A stretch of 64,000 bases of DNA, from NCBI GenBank assembly GCA_002780005.1, contig PEWV01000075.1, positions 14,133-78,132 of the forward strand, read 5' to 3'. The position numbers were made by a program, and so were the translations under genes. The stretch is from Candidatus Aquitaenariimonas noxiae. Lineage in GTDB: Bacteria; Omnitrophota; Gorgyraeia; Aquitaenariimonadales; Aquitaenariimonadaceae. Positions 3,382-45,085 of this stretch are shown here, piece by piece (position 1 is the stretch's first letter; each line of letters begins with the position of its first letter). Under the pieces are notes generated by a model. That model saw only the letters and a program-made list of their open reading frames with translations. It was not told the origin of the DNA and searched no databases.

Positions 3382-3762
3382 TTACCTCGGGGTTCCTGAT
3401 TTCAAACCTTCTTGATAACCATCTTTAAAACCTGATGCGTAGCCTTCTTGATATGCCTCTTGATACAAGTCGACCGTCTGTGATGTTCTTTGCACCTGTC
3501 GCGGGGTCGGTTCAACCGGAGGATTGTTTCCTTCCGTCATCACATCCAGAAGAACGTTACCGAGAATACCCGTTCCTGCCCCTATCAAAGCGCCCTTACC
3601 TGCTTTTCCGCCGCTAGCCCCAGCTGCTATCGCGCCTGTGCCGGCGCCGAGAAGCCCCTCTCTTAGAATCTTTGACGAATTCTGATCTGCGGCGAGTGCT
3701 TGCACGGTAAAATAGACAAGGCCGAAAGCTAGGACAAATACGACTACTATAAACCTCTTCAT
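3382..3762 (-). CDS. secreted glycine-zipper (Gly-rich) membrane-associated protein, hypothetical
   Basis: N-terminal signal/TM; GAGTGAIAAGASGGKAGKGALIGAGTGILG glycine-zipper stretch. Extended -10 (TGTGTTATAAT) and GGAGG SD upstream. Confidence 0.5.
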   Translation of the reverse strand: MKRFIVVVFVLAFGLVYFTVQALAADQNSSKILREGLLGAGTGAIAAGASGGKAGKGALIGAGTGILGNVLLDVMTEGNNPPVEPTPRQVQRTSQTVDLYQEAYQEGYASGFKDGYQEGLKSGTPR

Positions 3763-3822
3763 TTTAACACCTCCTTAATTTTCAGTTGTATATTATAACA
3801 CAAAAAGGGACAAAAAACTATC

Positions 3823-4971
3823 TTATTTATGCACCACTTTATTGTGTTTTTTGGTTTGACTGATTTTTGATTCTACGGAGCTAATAAGCTTATCAAATGA
3901 AACCTGAAATGCCTTAACGCCTTCGTCCTGGATCTCCTGGCAGGTCTTTTCTACGTTTATCCCAAAAGACGCCAAATCTTCTAAAACGTTTCTCGACCCT
4001 TCTAGATCATTTTCAATCCTAACACCCGGTTTACCATGATCCCTGAACGCTGCCAAGGTCGAATCCGGAATAGTGTTTATGCTCTGGGGCGCCACTAGTT
4101 CTTCAACGTACTTGACATCGCTGTATGATGGATTTTTCGTGCTCGTACTGGCCCATAAAACTTTCTGTATGCGCGCGTCGTTTTCCTGCAATTCGCCGAA
4201 ATTCTCATCAGAGAACAAGTCTTTAAAACGCTGATATATCATTTTAGTATGCGCAACGGCTGAGCGGCCTATCAAGGACTTGATTTTTAGGGATCTTGCT
4301 TTATCTTTTTCGATAACCAGTATTTTCTCCAGCATATTATCTATTTTTGTATCGAGGCGGCTTATAAATACGCTTGCCACGGAATTAACTCTGTCCAGGT
4401 CCTCGTCCCTCTTTAACCTATCTTTAAGGCCGTCAATATAAGCGTTAACGATAGCCTCATAATGCTGCATTGAAAAAAGCAGCGTCACATTCACGTTTAT
4501 GCCTTCGCTTATCAAAGTCTTGATAGCTTCCGGTGATTCTTTTGTGCCCGGGACTTTTATCATTATATTTTCTTTTCCTATGCGCTTAAATATCCTTTTA
4601 GCATCATTTATAGTCTTAGATACATCGTGCGCGTATTCCGGAAGCACCTCGATACTGACATAGCCGTCTTCACCTTTTGACCTCCTGAAAACGTCGTCCA
4701 AAATATCTGCAGCCATAGAAACATCACGAATGGTCAGTTCATCATAAATTTCTCTGGCACTTTTGCCGGATTTGATCAGTTCATAAATCTCTTCGTCGTA
4801 TTCCGTAGAGGAATTGATGGCGTTCTCGAATATAGACGGATTTGAGGTAACGCCGCGTATGCCGTCATCGCGTATCAATTTTTTAAGCCCGTCTCCGATC
4901 AAGAGAGACCTTTTGATATTGTCGTACCATGGGCTCTGTCCGAACTCTAACAATTTCTTTACAGGATTCAT
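3823..4971 (-). CDS. tal: transaldolase (long family-3 type)
   Basis: GVTSNPSIF motif and Schiff-base Lys context (IMIKVPGT); 382 aa. Confidence 0.85.
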   Translation of the reverse strand: MNPVKKLLEFGQSPWYDNIKRSLLIGDGLKKLIRDDGIRGVTSNPSIFENAINSSTEYDEEIYELIKSGKSAREIYDELTIRDVSMAADILDDVFRRSKGEDGYVSIEVLPEYAHDVSKTINDAKRIFKRIGKENIMIKVPGTKESPEAIKTLISEGINVNVTLLFSMQHYEAIVNAYIDGLKDRLKRDEDLDRVNSVASVFISRLDTKIDNMLEKILVIEKDKARSLKIKSLIGRSAVAHTKMIYQRFKDLFSDENFGELQENDARIQKVLWASTSTKNPSYSDVKYVEELVAPQSINTIPDSTLAAFRDHGKPGVRIENDLEGSRNVLEDLASFGINVEKTCQEIQDEGVKAFQVSFDKLISSVESKISQTKKHNKVVHK

Positions 4972-10391: not shown

Positions 10392-10991
10392 TTAAGAAAA
10401 TAGGTCCGAGACCTGTAGAATATTACGAAGCCTTATTTTTGTCCTGAAATAAACGGTATTGTTATTGGATGAGAGCGACATGTCAATTTGCACAAATCTT
10501 ATGTCAGTCGCCTGCGGGCTTACTAAAGGAGCTGGGATAACGTCTCCGTTCCCATCCAGGTATGAGAAGGTAAACGAGGAAACGTTTGAAACAAGCGTGT
10601 CGGCTGTGCCGTTATAGCTTCTTTCCAGATTTGATCCGTTAAGCTGGAATTGCATAGTATTATTATCTATGTCGACGAAACTATAGGAGGTAGCATTAGC
10701 TGTGATTACGCTTGTATTGTTTTTCAGACGACGTATCTCACGGCTCATTCTTCTAAAAGCTGTCTCGGCGCTTTGTGATAAATCTTTCCTATGTATGCTG
10801 TACTTATATGAGTCAACCAATTTAATAGCAACAGGGCCGCCGATACCTACTAATAGGCCTATGATAACTATGACCATTATTAGCTCGATCAGAGTAAACC
10901 CCGTTAGAGATGGGTTGTGTTCACCCATCGGACCTTTAATAGTGCTACGTTTAATGAAAAATTTACTTTTATCAATAATTATCTTGACCAT
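10392..10991 (-). CDS. minor (pseudo)pilin with prepilin-type N-terminal cleavage/methylation domain; 30-aa leader
   Basis: Leader ...EHNPSLTG then FTLIELIMVIVIIGLLVG (G-1, F+1, E+5). Confidence 0.8.
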   Translation of the reverse strand: MVKIIIDKSKFFIKRSTIKGPMGEHNPSLTGFTLIELIMVIVIIGLLVGIGGPVAIKLVDSYKYSIHRKDLSQSAETAFRRMSREIRRLKNNTSVITANATSYSFVDIDNNTMQFQLNGSNLERSYNGTADTLVSNVSSFTFSYLDGNGDVIPAPLVSPQATDIRFVQIDMSLSSNNNTVYFRTKIRLRNILQVSDLFS

Positions 10992-11091
10992 TTTTAGTAA
11001 GATATATTTTTATCTCTAACGGGGTAAACCCGTGCTTAGGTTTTAGGTGATAGGTTATAGGTGATAGGTGTTTTAACATTTTTAAATAGAA

Positions 11092-11568
11092 TCAGTTATT
11101 GGTTGCCAGCGTTACTGCCTCAACACTGGGAAATCCCGGGCGCGAAACTGTTATTTGGATTCTTTTATAGTTTGTAGAAGGGCTAGCGCTCAGCGTATTT
11201 AAATTTCCGCTGTCTACATAATAATAACTCACTTGATGTGAATAATCGCTGAAATTACCCGTGTACTCGGTCGGGCCCTCATTAACAACGTTAGAAAATC
11301 TCAAGTTCGTCACGCGTTCCAATTCGCTTTCTAATAGCGAAGACACTGCTATAAAATGTTCCGGTAAAAATGCGTTTTGCACTGATTCTATAATTACAAC
11401 CGAGACGGGAATTAATATAACAGAAGCAATAACGATCGTCATTATTAATTCTATAAGAGTAAGCCCTTTATCGGAGTTTCGATATTTCCCGCTTTTGCGG
11501 GATCCCGCACATGTATGTCCAAGGCTTGGTATAGGCGGGACGTATTTCGAATTTCGTATTTTTCTCAC
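11092..11568 (-). CDS. minor (pseudo)pilin; 34-aa leader
   Basis: ...NSDKG then LTLIELIMTIVIASVILIP. ATG overlaps the stop of the upstream pilin (ATGA), supporting this start. Confidence 0.75.
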   Translation of the reverse strand: MRKIRNSKYVPPIPSLGHTCAGSRKSGKYRNSDKGLTLIELIMTIVIASVILIPVSVVIIESVQNAFLPEHFIAVSSLLESELERVTNLRFSNVVNEGPTEYTGNFSDYSHQVSYYYVDSGNLNTLSASPSTNYKRIQITVSRPGFPSVEAVTLATNN

Positions 11569-12119
11569 TGTATATACACCCTGCCTGTTCCTCTCTCAAC
11601 CATTATATTTTTAGGACCTGTGATCGTTACGTTAGCCGGATTATTAAGCGCGGTACCACTGCCAGAACCGGCATCATAGCTATAGGGGTCCCCCCATTTG
11701 TCAAATGCCAGATCCTTATTGTTGTCATTAAAATAGACCTCTGTTATGTCAATGCCTTGGAATTCGCTCTCGTTAAACTGAACGGTGTAGTTATTTTTCG
11801 TTAATGGGTTGATCACTAAACTCCAATTTCCCGGGGTATCTTCTATGTAGACTGAGTAGCGATGTTGTGACGTGCTAAATGAGATCCGAGTCCTTTTTTG
11901 AATACTTACGGCTAGCGATTGCGCGTATCTTATGTCCGATTGAATTTTTTGCGCTGCCATATCCGAGCGCATAGCCGGCATATCGACCATCCTTGCGCTT
12001 GCCAGAACAGCCAAAATGCCGATAATGGCCATTACCATTATAAGCTCGAGAAGGGTAAACCCCGTTAGAAAGGCCCTACCCTTTTCATCAGGAATTGAAA
12101 TTCTGTTTGTTTCATCCAT
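11565..12119 (-). CDS. minor (pseudo)pilin (GspH/FimT-like); 19-aa leader
   Basis: ...GRAFLTG then FTLLELIMVMAIIGILA. Confidence 0.8.
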   Translation of the reverse strand: MDETNRISIPDEKGRAFLTGFTLLELIMVMAIIGILAVLASARMVDMPAMRSDMAAQKIQSDIRYAQSLAVSIQKRTRISFSTSQHRYSVYIEDTPGNWSLVINPLTKNNYTVQFNESEFQGIDITEVYFNDNNKDLAFDKWGDPYSYDAGSGSGTALNNPANVTITGPKNIMVERGTGRVYIQ

Positions 12120-12234
12120 ACTATCTATAAATCGCGCACCCCATTAAAAAGCATCTTTGTAATGAGATAAAGCTTTCTAACGGGGTAAACCCTCGTTTCA
12201 TATATAACATTTTCGGATGCTTCCCAATTACAGA

Positions 12235-12608
12235 TTACTGCTCGACAAATGAACCGTCGACATTGGAGTACGCATAAATGCCTCCGGCCGGACCAACGTA
12301 TTGGCTTGAGGCGTTTTTGGTCCACTCGCTTGTTATGCCGCCCTGGGAAAGAACCACAGTGAAAAACGCATTCGCCTTTGAGGCTGTCGAACTAGCAGCG
12401 GCAGCATCTAAATTGGCCGGCCATGCCTTATTTTGAGCGTAATAGGTATGGATACCTGCCCTGACGCCTCCTACCACACCCTTCTCGGCGGCTGATTTGG
12501 CATCGTTTTGCAGATCATAATATTTTGGGATCGCAACTGCTGCCAAAATACCCAATATAACAATAACCATGACTAATTCTATGAGCGTAAAACCCTTTTT
12601 CCGAACAT
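12235..12608 (-). CDS. pilA: major type IVa pilin (PilA-like), apparent +1 frameshift between SD-led ATG and the pilin frame
   Basis: GGAGGTAAAAATG at 12608 is 1 nt out of frame with the pilin body (KKGFTLIELVMVIVILGILAAVAIP...). One extra A in the A5 run (T5 at 12596-12600 on the plus strand) would give the classic leader MFGKKG/FTLIEL. ORF-track ORF 12235..12570 starts only at the internal Met. Confidence 0.6.
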
Positions 12609-25532: not shown

Positions 25533-26216
25533 TTACTTAAAAATAAAGCCTGTCTGGTTAGACCAGAATAAAAGATCGAGTTCTTCGACCGGAATATTTA
25601 AAGAATCGGAGAATTTTCGCATTTTGCTTTCGATTTCGAGATAGGTTTTTTTCGTTATGGCGCGCGGTATTTCTTTTATAACTTTATATCGCTTTAAATT
25701 CTTCAATATATGTACGTCCAGTATGGACATATTTCTGCCAAGGCCTATATTCCTCAAAAAATGGCTCGCTTCTTTATATCCGAGGCCCTTTACGTTCTTA
25801 ACAAGCCATTCCCTAACTCTAAAAGTATCATTTATATCTAATATTTTCTTTATCTCTATCCTTTTCCCGTGTTTGAAAATATTACGCGCGCCTATCAGGT
25901 AACCTGTCTTATTATTAGGGAACCTGACTTTTTGCAGCTTAGACCTCACGGCGCGCTTGCCGCCATTAAAAAGCAGTCTTGATCTTTTCAGTTCTTTAAT
26001 AGCCTGGCCGCAATAAACTGCTTTTGATTGAGGGGTCAATAAACAAAAACATAGTTCTGAAAAAACATTTTCATCGTCGGATTTGTGAATATTTTCAAAC
26101 TCTTTTAGCCTTTGTTTTATGTGATGCTTTTTATCCTTGTAAACCTTGATCAGGTCTTTCGCCCCGTTAGAAATACAAATTTCTTTACAATTATTATAAT
26201 TATAGCGTTCTGCCAT
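25533..26216 (-). CDS. N-glycosylase/DNA lyase (Ogg2-type 8-oxoguanine DNA glycosylase, HhH-GPD)
   Basis: 227 aa; GYKEASHFLRNIGLG...ILDVHIL HhH region. Start overlaps trxB stop (TAATG). Confidence 0.5.
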   Translation of the reverse strand: MAERYNYNNCKEICISNGAKDLIKVYKDKKHHIKQRLKEFENIHKSDDENVFSELCFCLLTPQSKAVYCGQAIKELKRSRLLFNGGKRAVRSKLQKVRFPNNKTGYLIGARNIFKHGKRIEIKKILDINDTFRVREWLVKNVKGLGYKEASHFLRNIGLGRNMSILDVHILKNLKRYKVIKEIPRAITKKTYLEIESKMRKFSDSLNIPVEELDLLFWSNQTGFIFK

Positions 26217-41615: not shown

Positions 41616-41677
41616 GTTTACCCCGTTAGAGATTTATTCTCCAACGGGATAAACCCCAATCTCTAACGGGGTTTAAC
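41616..41677. repeat. hairpin built from two inverted copies of the ATCTCTAACGGGGT motif (14-bp perfect stem, 25-nt loop containing a third degenerate copy)
   Basis: ACCCCGTTAGAGAT 41620-41633 and ATCTCTAACGGGGT 41659-41672. Confidence 0.8.
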
Positions 41678-43581: not shown

Positions 43582-44394
43582 TTATATCCTCACAGGAATG
43601 CCTCTATCCTTAAGGTATTCCTTTGCCTCTCTGATCGAATATTTCCCGTAATGAAAAATAGATGCCGCAAGAACGGCATCAGCCCTGCCTGTTGTTAGCG
43701 CCTCATAAAGATGTTCTAAATCCCCTGCGCCGCCCGATGCTATAACCGGGATATTTACGGTTTCTGATATAGCCTTTGTCAGCTTCAGGTCATAACCCGC
43801 TGTCGTTCCGTCCATATCCATGCTGGTAAGCAGGATCTCGCCGGCCCCTGATCGTTCTGCCTTTTTTGCCCATTCGACCGCGTCAAGGCCGACCGGTTTT
43901 CTACCGCCGTAGGCATATACTTCCCATTTCTTTTTTTTGCTATGGACTATGGACTGTGGGCTGTGGACTAACTTCGCGTCTATGGCAACCACTATGCACT
44001 GGCTGCCAAATTCCTCGGATGCTTCTTTAATCAATGTAGGGTTTTCTATTGCCGCTGTATTTATAGAAACCTTATCGGCCCCAGATTTCAAGAGCTGTCT
44101 TATATCGCTTATATTTCGAATGCCGCCTCCAACCGTCAAAGGTATAAAGACCTGCTCTGCTGTTTTTATGACCACATCTAAAAATGCCTGGCGTTTTTCA
44201 ACGCTTGCTGTTATGTCTAAGAATACTACTTCGTCCGCGCCTTCTTTGGAATAGAAGGCTGCTGTCTTGACAGGGTCTCCCGTGTCTTTAAGGTCCAGGA
44301 AATTAATACCCTTCACAACTCTTCCGTCTTTTACATCCAGGCATGGTATTATTCTTTTAGTCAGCCCCGTTAGAAACTTAGCTCTTTCTACCAT
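43582..44394 (-). CDS. hisF: imidazole glycerol phosphate synthase cyclase subunit HisF
   Basis: [16 protein letters not shown] ... full HisF barrel. Carries the N-terminal extension [13 protein letters not shown] and an internal [14 protein letters not shown] segment encoded by heptamer repeats. Confidence 0.9.
43941..43968. repeat. 4 x 7-nt tandem repeat T(A/G)TGG(A/G)C inside hisF, next to a T8 run (43931-43938)
   Basis: TATGGAC TATGGAC TGTGGGC TGTGGAC. Confidence 0.8.
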
Positions 44395-44466
44395 AATATT
44401 TATTCTCCATCCCCATTAAGAAAACATAAGCCATATTCAGCAAACCAAAACGTTTCTAACGGGGTT
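44365..44466. repeat. inverted pair of the CCCCGTTAGAAAC / GTTTCTAACGGGG motif bracketing the hisF start codon
   Basis: 13-bp perfect inverted repeat: 44366-44378 (inside hisF codons 6-10) and 44452-44464 (5' UTR). Confidence 0.8.
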
Positions 44467-45085
44467 AGCATAGTTTGCAAAAATTCTCCAAAAATTTAAG
44501 GCCCAATTCTGAGCTTTTTTCTGGGTGAAACTGTACGCCCCAAATATTATCCTTATTTACTGCAGAGGCGAAATCTTTCCCATACTTGGTCGTGCCGATT
44601 ATAATTCCTTTATCATCCGGATCAACATAATAGGTGTGAACGAAGTAGAAATATGAATTATCAGCTATGTCTTCAAACAGCTGTGGACTGTGGACTGTGG
44701 ACTGTGGACTTTTTATTTTAACCTCGTTCCATCCCATATGCGGCGTCTTCAATTGCAGATCAAATCTCTTAACTTTTCCTTTTAATATATCGAGGCCTCT
44801 ATGAGTGCCATGCTCCTCGCTTTCCGTAAATAATAATTGCAAACCAAGGCATATGCCTAAAAAAGGTTTGCCGTCTTTAATGATCCTGGTTATAGCAGGC
44901 AGGATATCTAATTCCGTAAGGTTAGCCATGGCCCTGGCAAAGGCGCCTACCCCGGGCAGAACAACGGCTTTAGCGTCGCTCAAATCATTAGGATTATCCG
45001 TAACCTTTGCCTGGGCGCCTACCATCTGGAAAGCTTTACTGACGCTTTTCAGGTTTCCCATGCCATAGTCGATTATCGCTATCAT
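44465..45085 (-). CDS. hisH: imidazole glycerol phosphate synthase glutaminase subunit HisH
   Basis: Class I GATase with GICLGLQLL catalytic Cys and HPEKS. Confidence 0.9.
   Translation of the reverse strand: MIAIIDYGMGNLKSVSKAFQMVGAQAKVTDNPNDLSDAKAVVLPGVGAFARAMANLTELDILPAITRIIKDGKPFLGICLGLQLLFTESEEHGTHRGLDILKGKVKRFDLQLKTPHMGWNEVKIKSPQSTVHSPQLFEDIADNSYFYFVHTYYVDPDDKGIIIGTTKYGKDFASAVNKDNIWGVQFHPEKSSELGLKFLENFCKLC
44682..44709. repeat. perfect 4 x 7-nt tandem repeat TGTGGAC inside hisH (encodes SPQSTVHSPQ)
   Basis: 44682-44709 is TGTGGAC x4 exactly. Confidence 0.9.

Follow-up and report, generated by a model that had tools for sequence, protein, structure and literature searches.

Inverted motif pairs at pilin and hisF gene starts very probably mark the ends of minute insertion elements with GIY-YIG nuclease-encoding relatives

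Why should one short sequence recur in inverted pairs around the translation starts of two minor pilin genes? In the 64-kb stretch of DNA analysed here (the window), which belongs to the Omnitrophota MAG 'Candidatus Aquitaenariimonas noxiae', the 10-mer TCTAACGGGG or its complement occurs nine times against 0.09 expected, and none of 100 shuffles of the window gave nine copies, which upholds the count of an earlier note made from the letters alone. The nine copies form four inverted pairs and one solo arm (Table 1); a degenerate scan of the window returned four pairs and no others, as against 0–1 in shuffled sequence. Polarity is identical in all four pairs, and three of them, at both pilins and hisF rather than at the two pilins only, as had been claimed, enclose a translation start. 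Gene 5′ ends host four of the five sites, either at or inside them. The exact 14-mer ATCTCTAACGGGGT occurs four times, at pilin 1 and in the intergenic pair; in pilin 2 a variant, CTTTCTAACGGGGT, takes its place and is matched by a complementary partner arm.

Table 1. Positions of the motif, the elements and the relics of original gene starts in the window (TIR, terminal inverted repeat).
Feature	Position	Strand	Details
10-mer TCTAACGGGG	10899, 11015, 12060, 12176, 26162, 41621, 41662, 44365, 44455		
Pair 1 (pilin 1)	10898-10911 / 11012-11025		14 nt, 100% complementary, 100 nt apart
Element copy 1 (126 nt)	10899..11024	-	inside 5′ end of minor pilin gene 10392..10991
Copy 1 left TIR	11012-11024	-	CCCCGTTAGAGAT
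Copy 1 right TIR	10899-10911	-	ATCTCTAACGGGG, translated S-L-T-G
Copy 1 direct repeats TTTA	left 11025-11028, right 10895-10898	-	
Relic of original pilin-1 start	11025..11079	-	ATG 11077-11079, leader MLKHLSPITYHLKPKH, Gly codon 11029-11031
Present candidate starts of pilin 1, inside element	10926..10991	-	ATG 10989-10991 (199-aa call); ATG 10926-10928 (178-aa call, leader MGEHNPSLTG)
Pair 2 (pilin 2)	12052-12072 / 12173-12193		21 nt, 90% complementary, 100 nt apart
Element copy 2 (126 nt)	12060..12185	-	inside 5′ end of minor pilin gene 11565..12119
Copy 2 left TIR	12173-12185	-	CCCCGTTAGAAAG
Copy 2 right TIR	12060-12072	-	CTTTCTAACGGGG, F-L-T-G
Copy 2 degenerate inner right arm	12139-12151	-	
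Copy 2 new start ATG	12117-12119	-	
Copy 2 direct repeats TTTA	left 12186-12189, right 12056-12059	-	
Relic of original pilin-2 start	12186..12201	-	ATG AAA CGA GGG (12190-12201) = M-K-R-G
hisF pair	44365-44377 / 44452-44464		13 nt, 100% complementary
Element copy 3 (100 nt)	44365..44464	-	5′ end of hisF (43582..44394)
Copy 3 TIRs	44452-44464 and 44365-44377	-	
Copy 3 internal GGAG and new ATG	ATG 44392-44394	-	adds 10 residues to HisF
hisF flanks	left 44465-44468, right 44361-44364		left CTAA, right CTGA
Relic hisF start	44465..44471	-	ATG 44469-44471, overlaps upstream gene's stop
Intergenic pair	41620-41634 / 41658-41672		15 nt, 100% complementary, 23 nt apart
Intergenic copy 4	41617..41675	+	TTTA 41617-41620, 51-nt unit 41621-41671, TTTA 41672-41675
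Copy 4 arms		+	perfect 13-nt TIRs; degenerate inner arm 41638-41650
Solo right arm	26162..26174	-	ATTTCTAACGGGG, ends N-terminal extension of N-glycosylase/DNA lyase gene 25533..26216

Very probably the motif is the 13-bp TIR (CCCCGTTAGAGAT on the left, ATCTCTAACGGGG on the right) of minute insertion elements that duplicate 4 nt of their target, in most cases TTTA. Four copies, of 51, 100, 126 and 126 nt, lie in the window; they are MITE-like and non-autonomous, and all four have perfect 13-nt TIRs. In addition, there is one solo arm, whose left partner is degenerate or lost. Flanking repeats are TTTA/TTTA at three copies and CTAA/CTGA, with a match at only three of the four positions, at hisF. 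No similarity was found between the interiors of different copies, or between these interiors and the remaining window sequence or other loci, although both pilin copies are exactly 126 nt long.

What the elements interrupt can still be read beside them. Both pilin copies lie directly 3′ of Gly-Phe-Thr codons (GGG TTT A/CCCC), and the original starts and leaders persist upstream, reading MKRG-FT for pilin 2 and MLKH...KHG-FT for pilin 1. As judged from the sequence, excision in silico is predicted to yield canonical N-termini for the pilins and hisF: with the element and one repeat removed, pilin 1 reads MLKHLSPITYHLKPKHGFTLIELIMV (MLKH..KHGFTLIEL) and pilin 2 MKRGFTLLELIMVM (MKRGFTLLEL), and hisF minus its element reads ATG CTA ACT AAA AGA ATA ATA CCA, i.e. 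MLTKRIIP, the canonical HisF N-terminus. Solved HisF structures align from residue 11 of the present protein, corresponding to residue 2 of HisF. At the solo arm, the match to the N-glycosylase/DNA lyase family profile begins at residue 20, directly past the arm. In this gene the motif is indeed read in another frame, as I-S-N-G, but the different frame also claimed for hisF was an error, since TTT CTA ACG GGG gives F-L-T-G in the frame used by pilin 2. Translational bypassing of the element between the repeated GGGTTTAC was considered but set aside, the gap being 130 nt and the take-off codon having no stop behind it.

Uninterrupted counterparts of the pilin sites exist. In a syntenic relative with the same gene order (L211), both pilin orthologues run through without an insertion (..CAA GGA TTT ACT ATT..), no arm core was found in 20.5 kb, and the leader of the pilin-1 orthologue, 16 aa long and His/Thr-rich, resembles the restored pilin-1 leader. 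Likewise, 22 of the 23 pilin-2 orthologues retrieved have short leaders without an LTG end, only P0003 ending in LTG. A gapped exact pattern recovered no empty pilin-2 allele of the same species from metagenome contigs. A 261-aa member of the hisF cluster, considered as an empty-site allele, proved to be a C-terminally truncated copy. An earlier suggestion, of a MITE-like element that had captured a pilin leader, can thus be kept as regards the MITE-like element; in place of capture, the element was inserted into the cleavage-site codons.

The element is not confined to the window. A 17-mer scan found at least 120 loci in Omnitrophota, CPR, Deltaproteobacteria, Nitrospirota and Planctomycetota, and about 90 among the 120 matches listed have exact 8-nt arm cores as inverted pairs within 400 nt. 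Prepilin G-F-T codons hold 14 units from other genomes among the matches listed, all 14 in frame (unit length plus 4 divisible by 3) and, where checked, with canonical leaders upstream. The shortest unit of the family measures 24 nt, and the shortest at a pilin site 29 nt (L106). Beyond 4 nt, the flanks of the copies are unrelated, the insertion sites being as different as pilin genes, hisF, intergenic DNA and start codons in many genes. The four flanking nucleotides themselves are identical on both sides in 109 of 204 units (permuted mean 32, maximum 48) and in 23 of 69 units of a set unbiased by the search pattern (null 5.6 ± 2.0, maximum 13), and they co-vary between copies, e.g. TGAA/TGAA, TGAG/TGAG and TAAG/TAAG. 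Because one flank was constrained to TWWAC in the genome scan, TTTA/TAAA is over-represented among the 120 loci. At one locus (L016), a presumed transposase between two units turned out to be a gene for a 686-aa secreted protein. Rfam, applied to the window and 12 family loci, has no family for the element, its sole match being an unrelated FMN riboswitch at L046. No description of the element turned up in the literature, whether the sequence string or the concept was searched for; one paper (PMC12455944) notes only that a GIY-YIG protein was transferred horizontally from Patescibacteria.

Longer members of the family carry a gene. Units of 272–293 nt (about 279) enclose a single 86-aa ORF, UPF0213-like, which matches Pfam PF01541 (E = 8e-16 and 5e-14) and has as its nearest solved chain the UPF0213 protein BH0048 (1ZG2, E = 1.4e-8); its product carries the GIY-YIG catalytic domain and is a predicted nuclease. 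Both arms, with at most one mismatch, surround the ORF in 65 of 80 metagenomic relatives, the left arm ending 0–7 nt ahead of the ATG and the right arm forming the last codons (...L-x-L-T-G). These ORF-anchored arms define the TIR length of 13 bp independently: complementarity is at least 94% at positions 1–13 and collapses at position 14. Covariation, raised in the earlier note as a check on the arm pairs, is present in these relatives as compensatory changes between the arms, such as C.G in 41 and T.A in 22 pairs at position 1. Perfect duplications were found in only about a third of ORF-bearing units, and more distant GIY-YIG ORFs have different inverted repeats. A 134-nt unit with a truncated ORF inside (L070), i.e. 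an internally deleted intermediate, points to the route by which miniature copies arise, and in L060 and L170 the whole nuclease lies in frame within a prepilin leader at the G/FT codons. An ORF-bearing copy is also present in the same aquifer community, in a Nomurabacteria genome (L135). Separately, an ORF-bearing contig (L171) shares sample and G+C content with the window. In the 64-kb window, neither a GIY-YIG nor any other ORF spans a unit and no GIY-YIG ORF occurs anywhere; when remnants were sought by tblastn and with an nhmmer profile built from 70 full-length elements, nothing beyond the 15–24-nt termini matched. IMG/VR viral contigs and PLSDB plasmids yielded no relatives of the ORF. 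We infer that the GIY-YIG protein mobilises the miniature elements in trans.

On this interpretation as insertion elements, two copies would have entered at TTTA within the codons for Gly-Phe-Thr (GGG TTT ACN) at the prepilin cleavage site, and one copy codon 3 of hisF. With 126 + 4 nt in the pilins and 100 + 4 nt in hisF, the insertions would be out of frame and would therefore strand the original start codon and leader upstream, so that translation would have to begin at an ATG inside the element; the internal ATGs are thus presumably the starts actually used. The new reading frame would exit through the right arm as (S/F)-L-T-G, which in the pilins would recreate the G/FT(L)(I/L)E cleavage site, and in HisF the element would contribute 10 extra residues. 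Because the element ends are inverted repeats, a helix of 13–21 bp would form around each new start and may lower translation.

More tentatively, the family could represent a new class of transposable elements in prokaryotes, with an 86-residue GIY-YIG nuclease as their one gene and, at ~279 bp, smaller than any autonomous bacterial mobile element known, a proposal that we consider possible rather than probable. GIY-YIG enzymes are hydrolytic nucleases, and we know of none that acts as a transposase. In such a scheme, the nuclease would cut the DNA with a 4-nt stagger, both where arm meets flank and at TTTA or TGAA target sites that match; the 'duplication' would be restored when the host ligated or repaired the ends, and the element would be adapted for landing in gene starts. 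In nuclease-leader fusions at prepilin G/FT, prepilin peptidase could free the nuclease, because the nuclease C-terminus ...LTG recreates the cleavage site.

Among other explanations, the one with most left in its favour, albeit unlikely, is a cis-regulatory mRNA helix of 13–21 bp around ribosome-binding site and start, selected at the pilin genes and hisF for control of translation or processing by, e.g., an RNA-binding protein or RNase III. For all three transcripts, the minimum-free-energy structure and the centroid structure do have the arms paired (z −4.5, −3.6 and −3.3), and each pair is perfectly complementary although the pairs differ among themselves. However, such a helix is missing in 22 of 23 orthologues and in the syntenic relative, its would-be arms flank a nuclease ORF at many unrelated loci or occur as bare 24–30-nt hairpins, the interiors are unrelated, no Rfam family matches, and the relic starts and 4-nt duplications mark insertions. 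Of the long-range mRNA helix proposed earlier, the predicted structure therefore stands and the conserved regulator does not.

Movement by a Y1 HUH transposase (RAYT/TnpA), which would make the units REP/REPIN or IS200/IS605-derived and the GIY-YIG ORF a frequent cargo, appears very unlikely. IS608 targets TTAC, and the present units, short, hairpin-forming and multi-copy, likewise insert beside a preferred tetranucleotide. Against this, their flanks are duplicated and co-varying, whereas no duplication arises with IS200/IS605 elements; the majority of the window copies lie within genes; ORF and arms are tightly linked, with an arm 0–7 nt from the ATG and the right arm as the last codons; and distant GIY-YIG ORFs have other inverted repeats. 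The REP tags GTAG or CGTC, as given in PMC3733652, are missing, the arms reading GTTAG.

Still less probable is an inverton, in which a recombinase would flip the start-codon segment to turn genes on and off. That the same inverted repeat occurs at several loci, as in invertase regulons, and that the segments hold translation starts would suit such a switch, but 10 of 10 independent assemblies of the locus show a single orientation, one pair only 23 nt apart and family units down to 24 nt are too short for inversion, flipping would not rejoin the relic leader, phase variation of hisF is implausible, and transposition is indicated by the 4-nt direct repeats at the flanks and by full-length units with an ORF. 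Neither the inversion switch nor the paired binding sites for a DNA-binding protein, both offered in the earlier note, found support, given units down to 24 nt, target-site duplications and the one orientation in those assemblies. Chance, or codon-level conservation of the prepilin leader motif, is refuted: one arm per pilin pair does lie in the conserved cleavage-site region, but the partner arms are in non-coding DNA, the same pair sits at hisF and at an intergenic site, the motif is absent from two further pilins of the operon, the major one and the third minor one, and nine copies face 0.09 expected.

To our knowledge, prokaryotic transposases belong to the DDE, DEDD, HUH, serine, tyrosine and Cas1 classes. 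If correct, an element with TIRs, target-site duplications and a GIY-YIG nuclease as its sole gene would add a new transposition chemistry in a unit below 300 bp, apparently present in several phyla of uncultivated bacteria from groundwater. In these lineages, an N-terminus that ends in '(S/F)LTG' would then be element-derived, and start codons would be mis-called, as with one pilin whose annotated length is either 199 or 178 aa. Replacement or lengthening of prepilin leaders may occur, and predictors based on inverted repeats could label such pairs invertons or riboregulators. A selfish insertion would be tolerable even inside hisF and type IV pilin or pseudopilin genes, because the element brings its own outward-reading translation start.

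Among known systems, free-standing GIY-YIG homing endonuclease genes (phage T4 seg, I-TevI family) are likewise selfish units made up almost wholly of a nuclease gene, and they too insert in a way that leaves the host gene expressed. In homing, however, homology-directed repair copies the gene into a cognate allele, and neither inverted repeats nor duplications are involved; here, 13-bp inverted repeats form the ends, the flanks of the copies are unrelated rather than a cognate, homologous empty allele, ORF-less miniatures exist, and the nuclease is nearest UPF0213/BH0048, not I-TevI. REP/REPIN-RAYT and IS200/IS605-derived palindromes are similar as small hairpin repeats, sometimes in inverted doublets, with a preferred short target. 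They differ in that REP sequences are 20–40-nt extragenic palindromes with a GTAG/CGTC tag, whereas the present arms read CCCCGTTAGAGAT, the units are intragenic with a 4-nt duplication, and the associated ORF is GIY-YIG, not Y1 HUH. IS200/IS605 elements, moreover, have no TIRs and no target duplication and insert 3′ of a fixed tetra- or pentanucleotide; the TIRs found here are perfect and the flank repeats co-vary. Rickettsia palindromic elements (RPEs), which Ogata and colleagues are said to have described in 2000, are reportedly palindromic insertions lying in frame in protein-coding genes and translated, much as all 14 pilin insertions in other genomes are in frame. Unlike the present family, RPEs are Rickettsia-specific, have no known coding partner and target no single codon motif; the two pilin copies of the window, in turn, are out of frame and replace the start.

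Bacterial MITEs such as Neisseria Correia/NEMIS share with these elements a size of 24–300 nt, the absence of coding capacity, TIRs, a short duplication, many copies, ends common to a larger coding element, and co-transcription with neighbouring genes to form hairpins. The five hallmarks of a MITE that were considered are all present in the family: TIRs, a target-site duplication, small multi-copy units without a transposase gene, ends shared with a coding element, and filled and empty sites, the latter in the syntenic relative and the 22 of 23 orthologues. Unlike MITEs, however, the coding partner is only ~279 nt long, with an 86-aa GIY-YIG nuclease in place of a DDE transposase, copies in the same genome have unrelated interiors, and insertion into the first codons of genes, where the copy is translated, is frequent.

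The four inverted pairs in the window are insertions with 13-bp terminal inverted repeats and 4-nt duplications, and three native translation starts have been displaced by them. As the earlier note had reported, the core motif TCTAACGGGG or its complement is greatly overrepresented (nine copies in 64 kb vs. 0.09 expected), and the nine copies group as four inverted pairs plus one single copy. A mismatch-tolerant scan of the window recovered the same four pairs and one overlapping pair, vs. 0–1 in shuffled sequence; the overlapping fifth pair is due to a degenerate inner arm within the pilin 2 copy. In gene direction, the gene-associated pairs are laid out as TTTA-CCCCGTTAGA...spacer...TCTAACGGGG-TTTA (in hisF, the flanks are CTAA and CTGA). 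The pilin 1 and pilin 2 units are both exactly 126 nt long, though their interiors are unrelated. The exact 14-mer that the note had assigned to both pilin genes occurs solely at pilin 1 and at the intergenic site; pilin 2 has a variant complementary to its own partner. Likewise, of the two genes in which the motif was said to be read in a different frame, the Ogg-like gene alone differs, and hisF shares the pilin 2 frame (F-L-T-G). Composites of left arm, inner right arm and right arm, seen in the pilin 2 and intergenic copies and likewise at loci L062 and L014 of other genomes, may show how new interior sequence gets acquired.

Arms and inverted pairs in the window, and inverted repeats around two GIY-YIG ORFs of locus L113 (another genome)
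Feature	Position	Arms	Spacer	Sequence
Pilin 1 pair	10898-10911 / 11012-11025	14 nt, perfect	100 nt	
Pilin 2 pair	12052-12072 / 12173-12193	21 nt, 90%	100 nt	
Intergenic pair	41620-41634 / 41658-41672	15 nt, perfect	23 nt	
hisF pair	44365-44377 / 44452-44464	13 nt, perfect	74 nt	
Solo arm, Ogg-like gene	26161-26174	no partner		
Degenerate extra right arm, pilin 2 copy	12139-12151			CTTTTTAATGGGG
Degenerate extra right arm, intergenic copy	41638-41650			TCTCCAACGGGAT
L113 GIY-YIG ORF with inverted repeats	4465-4768	19 nt		CCCCGCACCTATCAAGCAC
L113 GIY-YIG ORF with inverted repeats	4058-4355	12 nt		ACTCTTCACCCC

Both pilin genes lie in a type II secretion/type IV pilus-like operon (8.7–15.7 kb, minus strand) encoding GspE, GspF, one major and three minor pilins, and a 563-aa protein. 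Upstream of the left arm (arm boundary, ^), pilin 2 retains ATG AAA CGA GGG TTT A^CCCC, i.e. the textbook prepilin leader M-K-R-G-F-T, and at pilin 1 an in-frame ATG (11077-11079) begins MLKHLSPITYHLKPKH-G-F-T. At hisF, the corresponding sequence is ATG CTA A^CCCC, whose ATG shares bases with the stop codon of the preceding gene. In-silico removal of the unit and one flank repeat yields pilins starting MKRGFTLLELIMV and MLKH...KHGFTLIELIMV, and a 12-residue HisF N-terminus. As residue 2 of solved HisF structures aligns with residue 11 of the present window HisF, its first 10 residues are an added extension. The Ogg-like gene follows the same logic, with an arm-ended N-terminal extension: its family profile match begins at residue 20, directly past the solo arm.

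Since the insertions add 130 nt (pilins) or 104 nt (hisF), the original frames end at stop codons. The ORFs as they now stand open at ATGs within the units, from which the pilins and HisF are likely now translated. The new hisF ATG is preceded by GGAG ten bases upstream; no obvious Shine-Dalgarno sequence was seen at that of pilin 2, and gene callers disagree on the length of pilin 1 (199 vs. 178 aa). For each of the three transcripts, folding predicts an arm helix (z = −3.3 to −4.5), which might dampen translation.

The relic leader of pilin 1 (11030-11076, minus strand) consists of short tandem-like repeats (CACCTAT/AACCTAT...). In the relative L211, the uninterrupted pilin 1 orthologue has a leader made from ACACGAC repeats (MKKRMTHDTRHTTHDA; 10960-11010), and long leaders rich in His/Thr and encoded by repeats seem to characterise this minor pilin. 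Separately, the major pilin gene of the window carries a frameshift (12596-12600, minus strand, upstream of ORF 12235..12570): its start (12606-12608), preceded by a strong GGAGG, reads ATG TTC GG followed by five A. In at least six further same-species assemblies, the run is six A long and the 124-aa prepilin (MFGKKGFTLIEL...) is intact, a difference reflecting either assembly error or slipped-strand on/off variation.

Comparison with relatives identified the arms in the window as insertions rather than ancestral structure. In L211, where gene order is kept over 20 kb, neither orthologous pilin gene is interrupted, the TTTA target is preserved (CAA GGA TTT ACT ATT ATC GAG), the pilin 1 orthologue has a 16-aa His/Thr-rich leader like the relic one in the window, and the arm core was found nowhere on the syntenic contig. 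Among 23 retrieved pilin 2 orthologues (43–64% identity), 22 leaders lack an LTG end and most are short and canonical, e.g. MLKKG^FTLLEL and MCKG^FTLAEL (^, leader end). The sole exception (P0003, ...ESLTG^FT) has a separate 51-nt unit in its DNA. Within the species, both pilin units are present in one orientation in all of at least ten assemblies, and no empty pilin 2 allele was found among the metagenome contigs searched. In one same-species assembly (L003, 7431 region), the left arm of the pilin 2 copy has changed from CCCC to CCTC with the right arm unchanged; a G·U pair is still possible in RNA.

A scan of one genome per species for TYTCTAACGGGGTWWAC returned at least 120 loci. As chance would give ~550 matches in 596 Gb, this count by itself says nothing, and it is the structure of the matches that matters. 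About 90 of the 120 loci listed contain inverted pairs of exact 8-nt arm cores within 400 nt, and by a stricter test 111 units in these loci have 13-nt arms with at most one mismatch; unit length is 24–298 nt (median 80). Hosts among the matches listed include Omnitrophota, many CPR lineages, Deltaproteobacteria/Syntrophia, Nitrospirota and Planctomycetota. In 109 of 204 units, the 4-nt flank next to one arm is the same as that next to the other (permuted mean 32, maximum 48). Because the scan pattern imposed TWWAC on one flank, the test was rerun on an unbiased set, in which 23 of 69 units have identical flanks vs. 5.6 ± 2.0, representing TGAA, TAAA, TGAG, TTTA, TAAG, TGGA, TGAT and CTGG. These identical flanks are a 4-bp target duplication.

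Fourteen listed units from other genomes sit exactly at prepilin G-F-T codons, preceded, where checked, by canonical leaders (e.g. MKRQKGFT, MSRQRRGFT, MRNQQGFT, MDKRRGFT, MTQKGFT). In all 14, unit length plus four is divisible by three; 97 non-pilin units of other genomes split 44/21/32. In these in-frame genes, the arms are read as P-L-E (left) and (S/F)-L-T-G (right), so that the prepilin leader becomes longer instead of being exchanged. Among the pilin copies listed, the two in the window alone are out of frame.

The full-length form of the family carries a GIY-YIG gene only. A single ORF, encoding a GIY-YIG domain protein of ~86 aa (closest solved structure, UPF0213 protein BH0048), fills some long units, namely L060 (two copies, Yanofskybacteria), L057 (Omnitrophota) and L062 (Saccharibacteria). 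An alignment-based metagenome scan found at least 568 relatives; of the best 80 examined, both arms are present in 65, each with no more than one mismatch. The left arm ends 0–7 nt before the ATG, and the last four codons (...L-T-G) form the right arm. When the right arm was fixed by the ORF end rather than its own sequence and its complement sought upstream, 69 of 78 gave at least 12/16 matches (control windows, mostly 7–9). Complementarity is at least 94% at positions 1–13, 49% at position 14 and then gone, with compensatory pairs at several positions, e.g. C·G 41/T·A 22 at position 1 and T·A 41/C·G 16/A·T 8 at position 13.

Full-length units measure 272–293 nt (mode 279). A stop codon directly follows the right arm in 52 of 70, and in 21 of 70 the final base of the arm and the TG after it make up the start codon of a host ORF of 40 codons or more (ATGA overlap), most exceeding 100 codons and reaching 500; a relic ATGA(A/G) is frequent on the opposite side. 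A subfamily with an outermost T·A pair (TCCC...GGGA) is located precisely at host start codons (L146, L152, L176, L179, L181, L196, L204, L206, L208, L210): at its right end, GGGA^TGA(A/G), the nuclease stop TGA overlaps the regenerated ATG of a ~190–500-codon host ORF, and a relic ATGA(A/G) lies at its left flank. Within a prepilin gene, one full-length L060 unit forms a continuous reading frame (leader-GFT-PLE..-nuclease-..LTG^FTLIE), and in L170 reading likewise continues past LTG into FTLIE; the prepilin peptidase could, speculatively, free the nuclease from such fusions. Another ORF-bearing unit (L138) adjoins TTTACC and runs off the contig end, and a 134-nt unit (L070) has lost all of the ORF beyond codon 23. 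In L113, two small GIY-YIG ORFs that are more distant (42–47% identity) are each enclosed by distinct inverted repeats, as would be the case if nuclease and ends co-evolved, and the ORF-plus-inverted-repeat design may be general for this protein family. Viral contigs and plasmids searched contained no relatives of the ORF. In L046, an Omnitrophota contig, positions 3645-3800 hold an FMN riboswitch (Rfam RF00050, 82.5 bits) unrelated to the element.

A profile of 70 full-length elements matched the window at the terminal 15–24 nt only, and no GIY-YIG ORF exists in the 64 kb; the window copies are therefore ORF-less derivatives sharing only the ends. Their interiors resembled nothing else compared. 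The aquifer that is home to the window's organism also yielded a Nomurabacteria genome with an ORF-bearing copy (L135). The GIY-YIG protein probably acts on the arms in trans, mobilising full-length and ORF-less forms alike, and one might speculate that it cuts and ligates via matching 4-nt overhangs.

Full-text searches of the freely readable literature turned up no account of GIY-YIG genes enclosed by inverted repeats and flanked by duplications. Taken as a whole, the family has a substantial chance of being a new class of mobile element. The window features differ from REP/RAYT, IS200/IS605 and homing-endonuclease systems in the defining characters of each; they agree with MITEs in all structural criteria tested and are therefore a MITE variant. 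For the start-replacing copies, we know of no close precedent; the in-frame pilin copies are functionally akin to Rickettsia palindromic elements.
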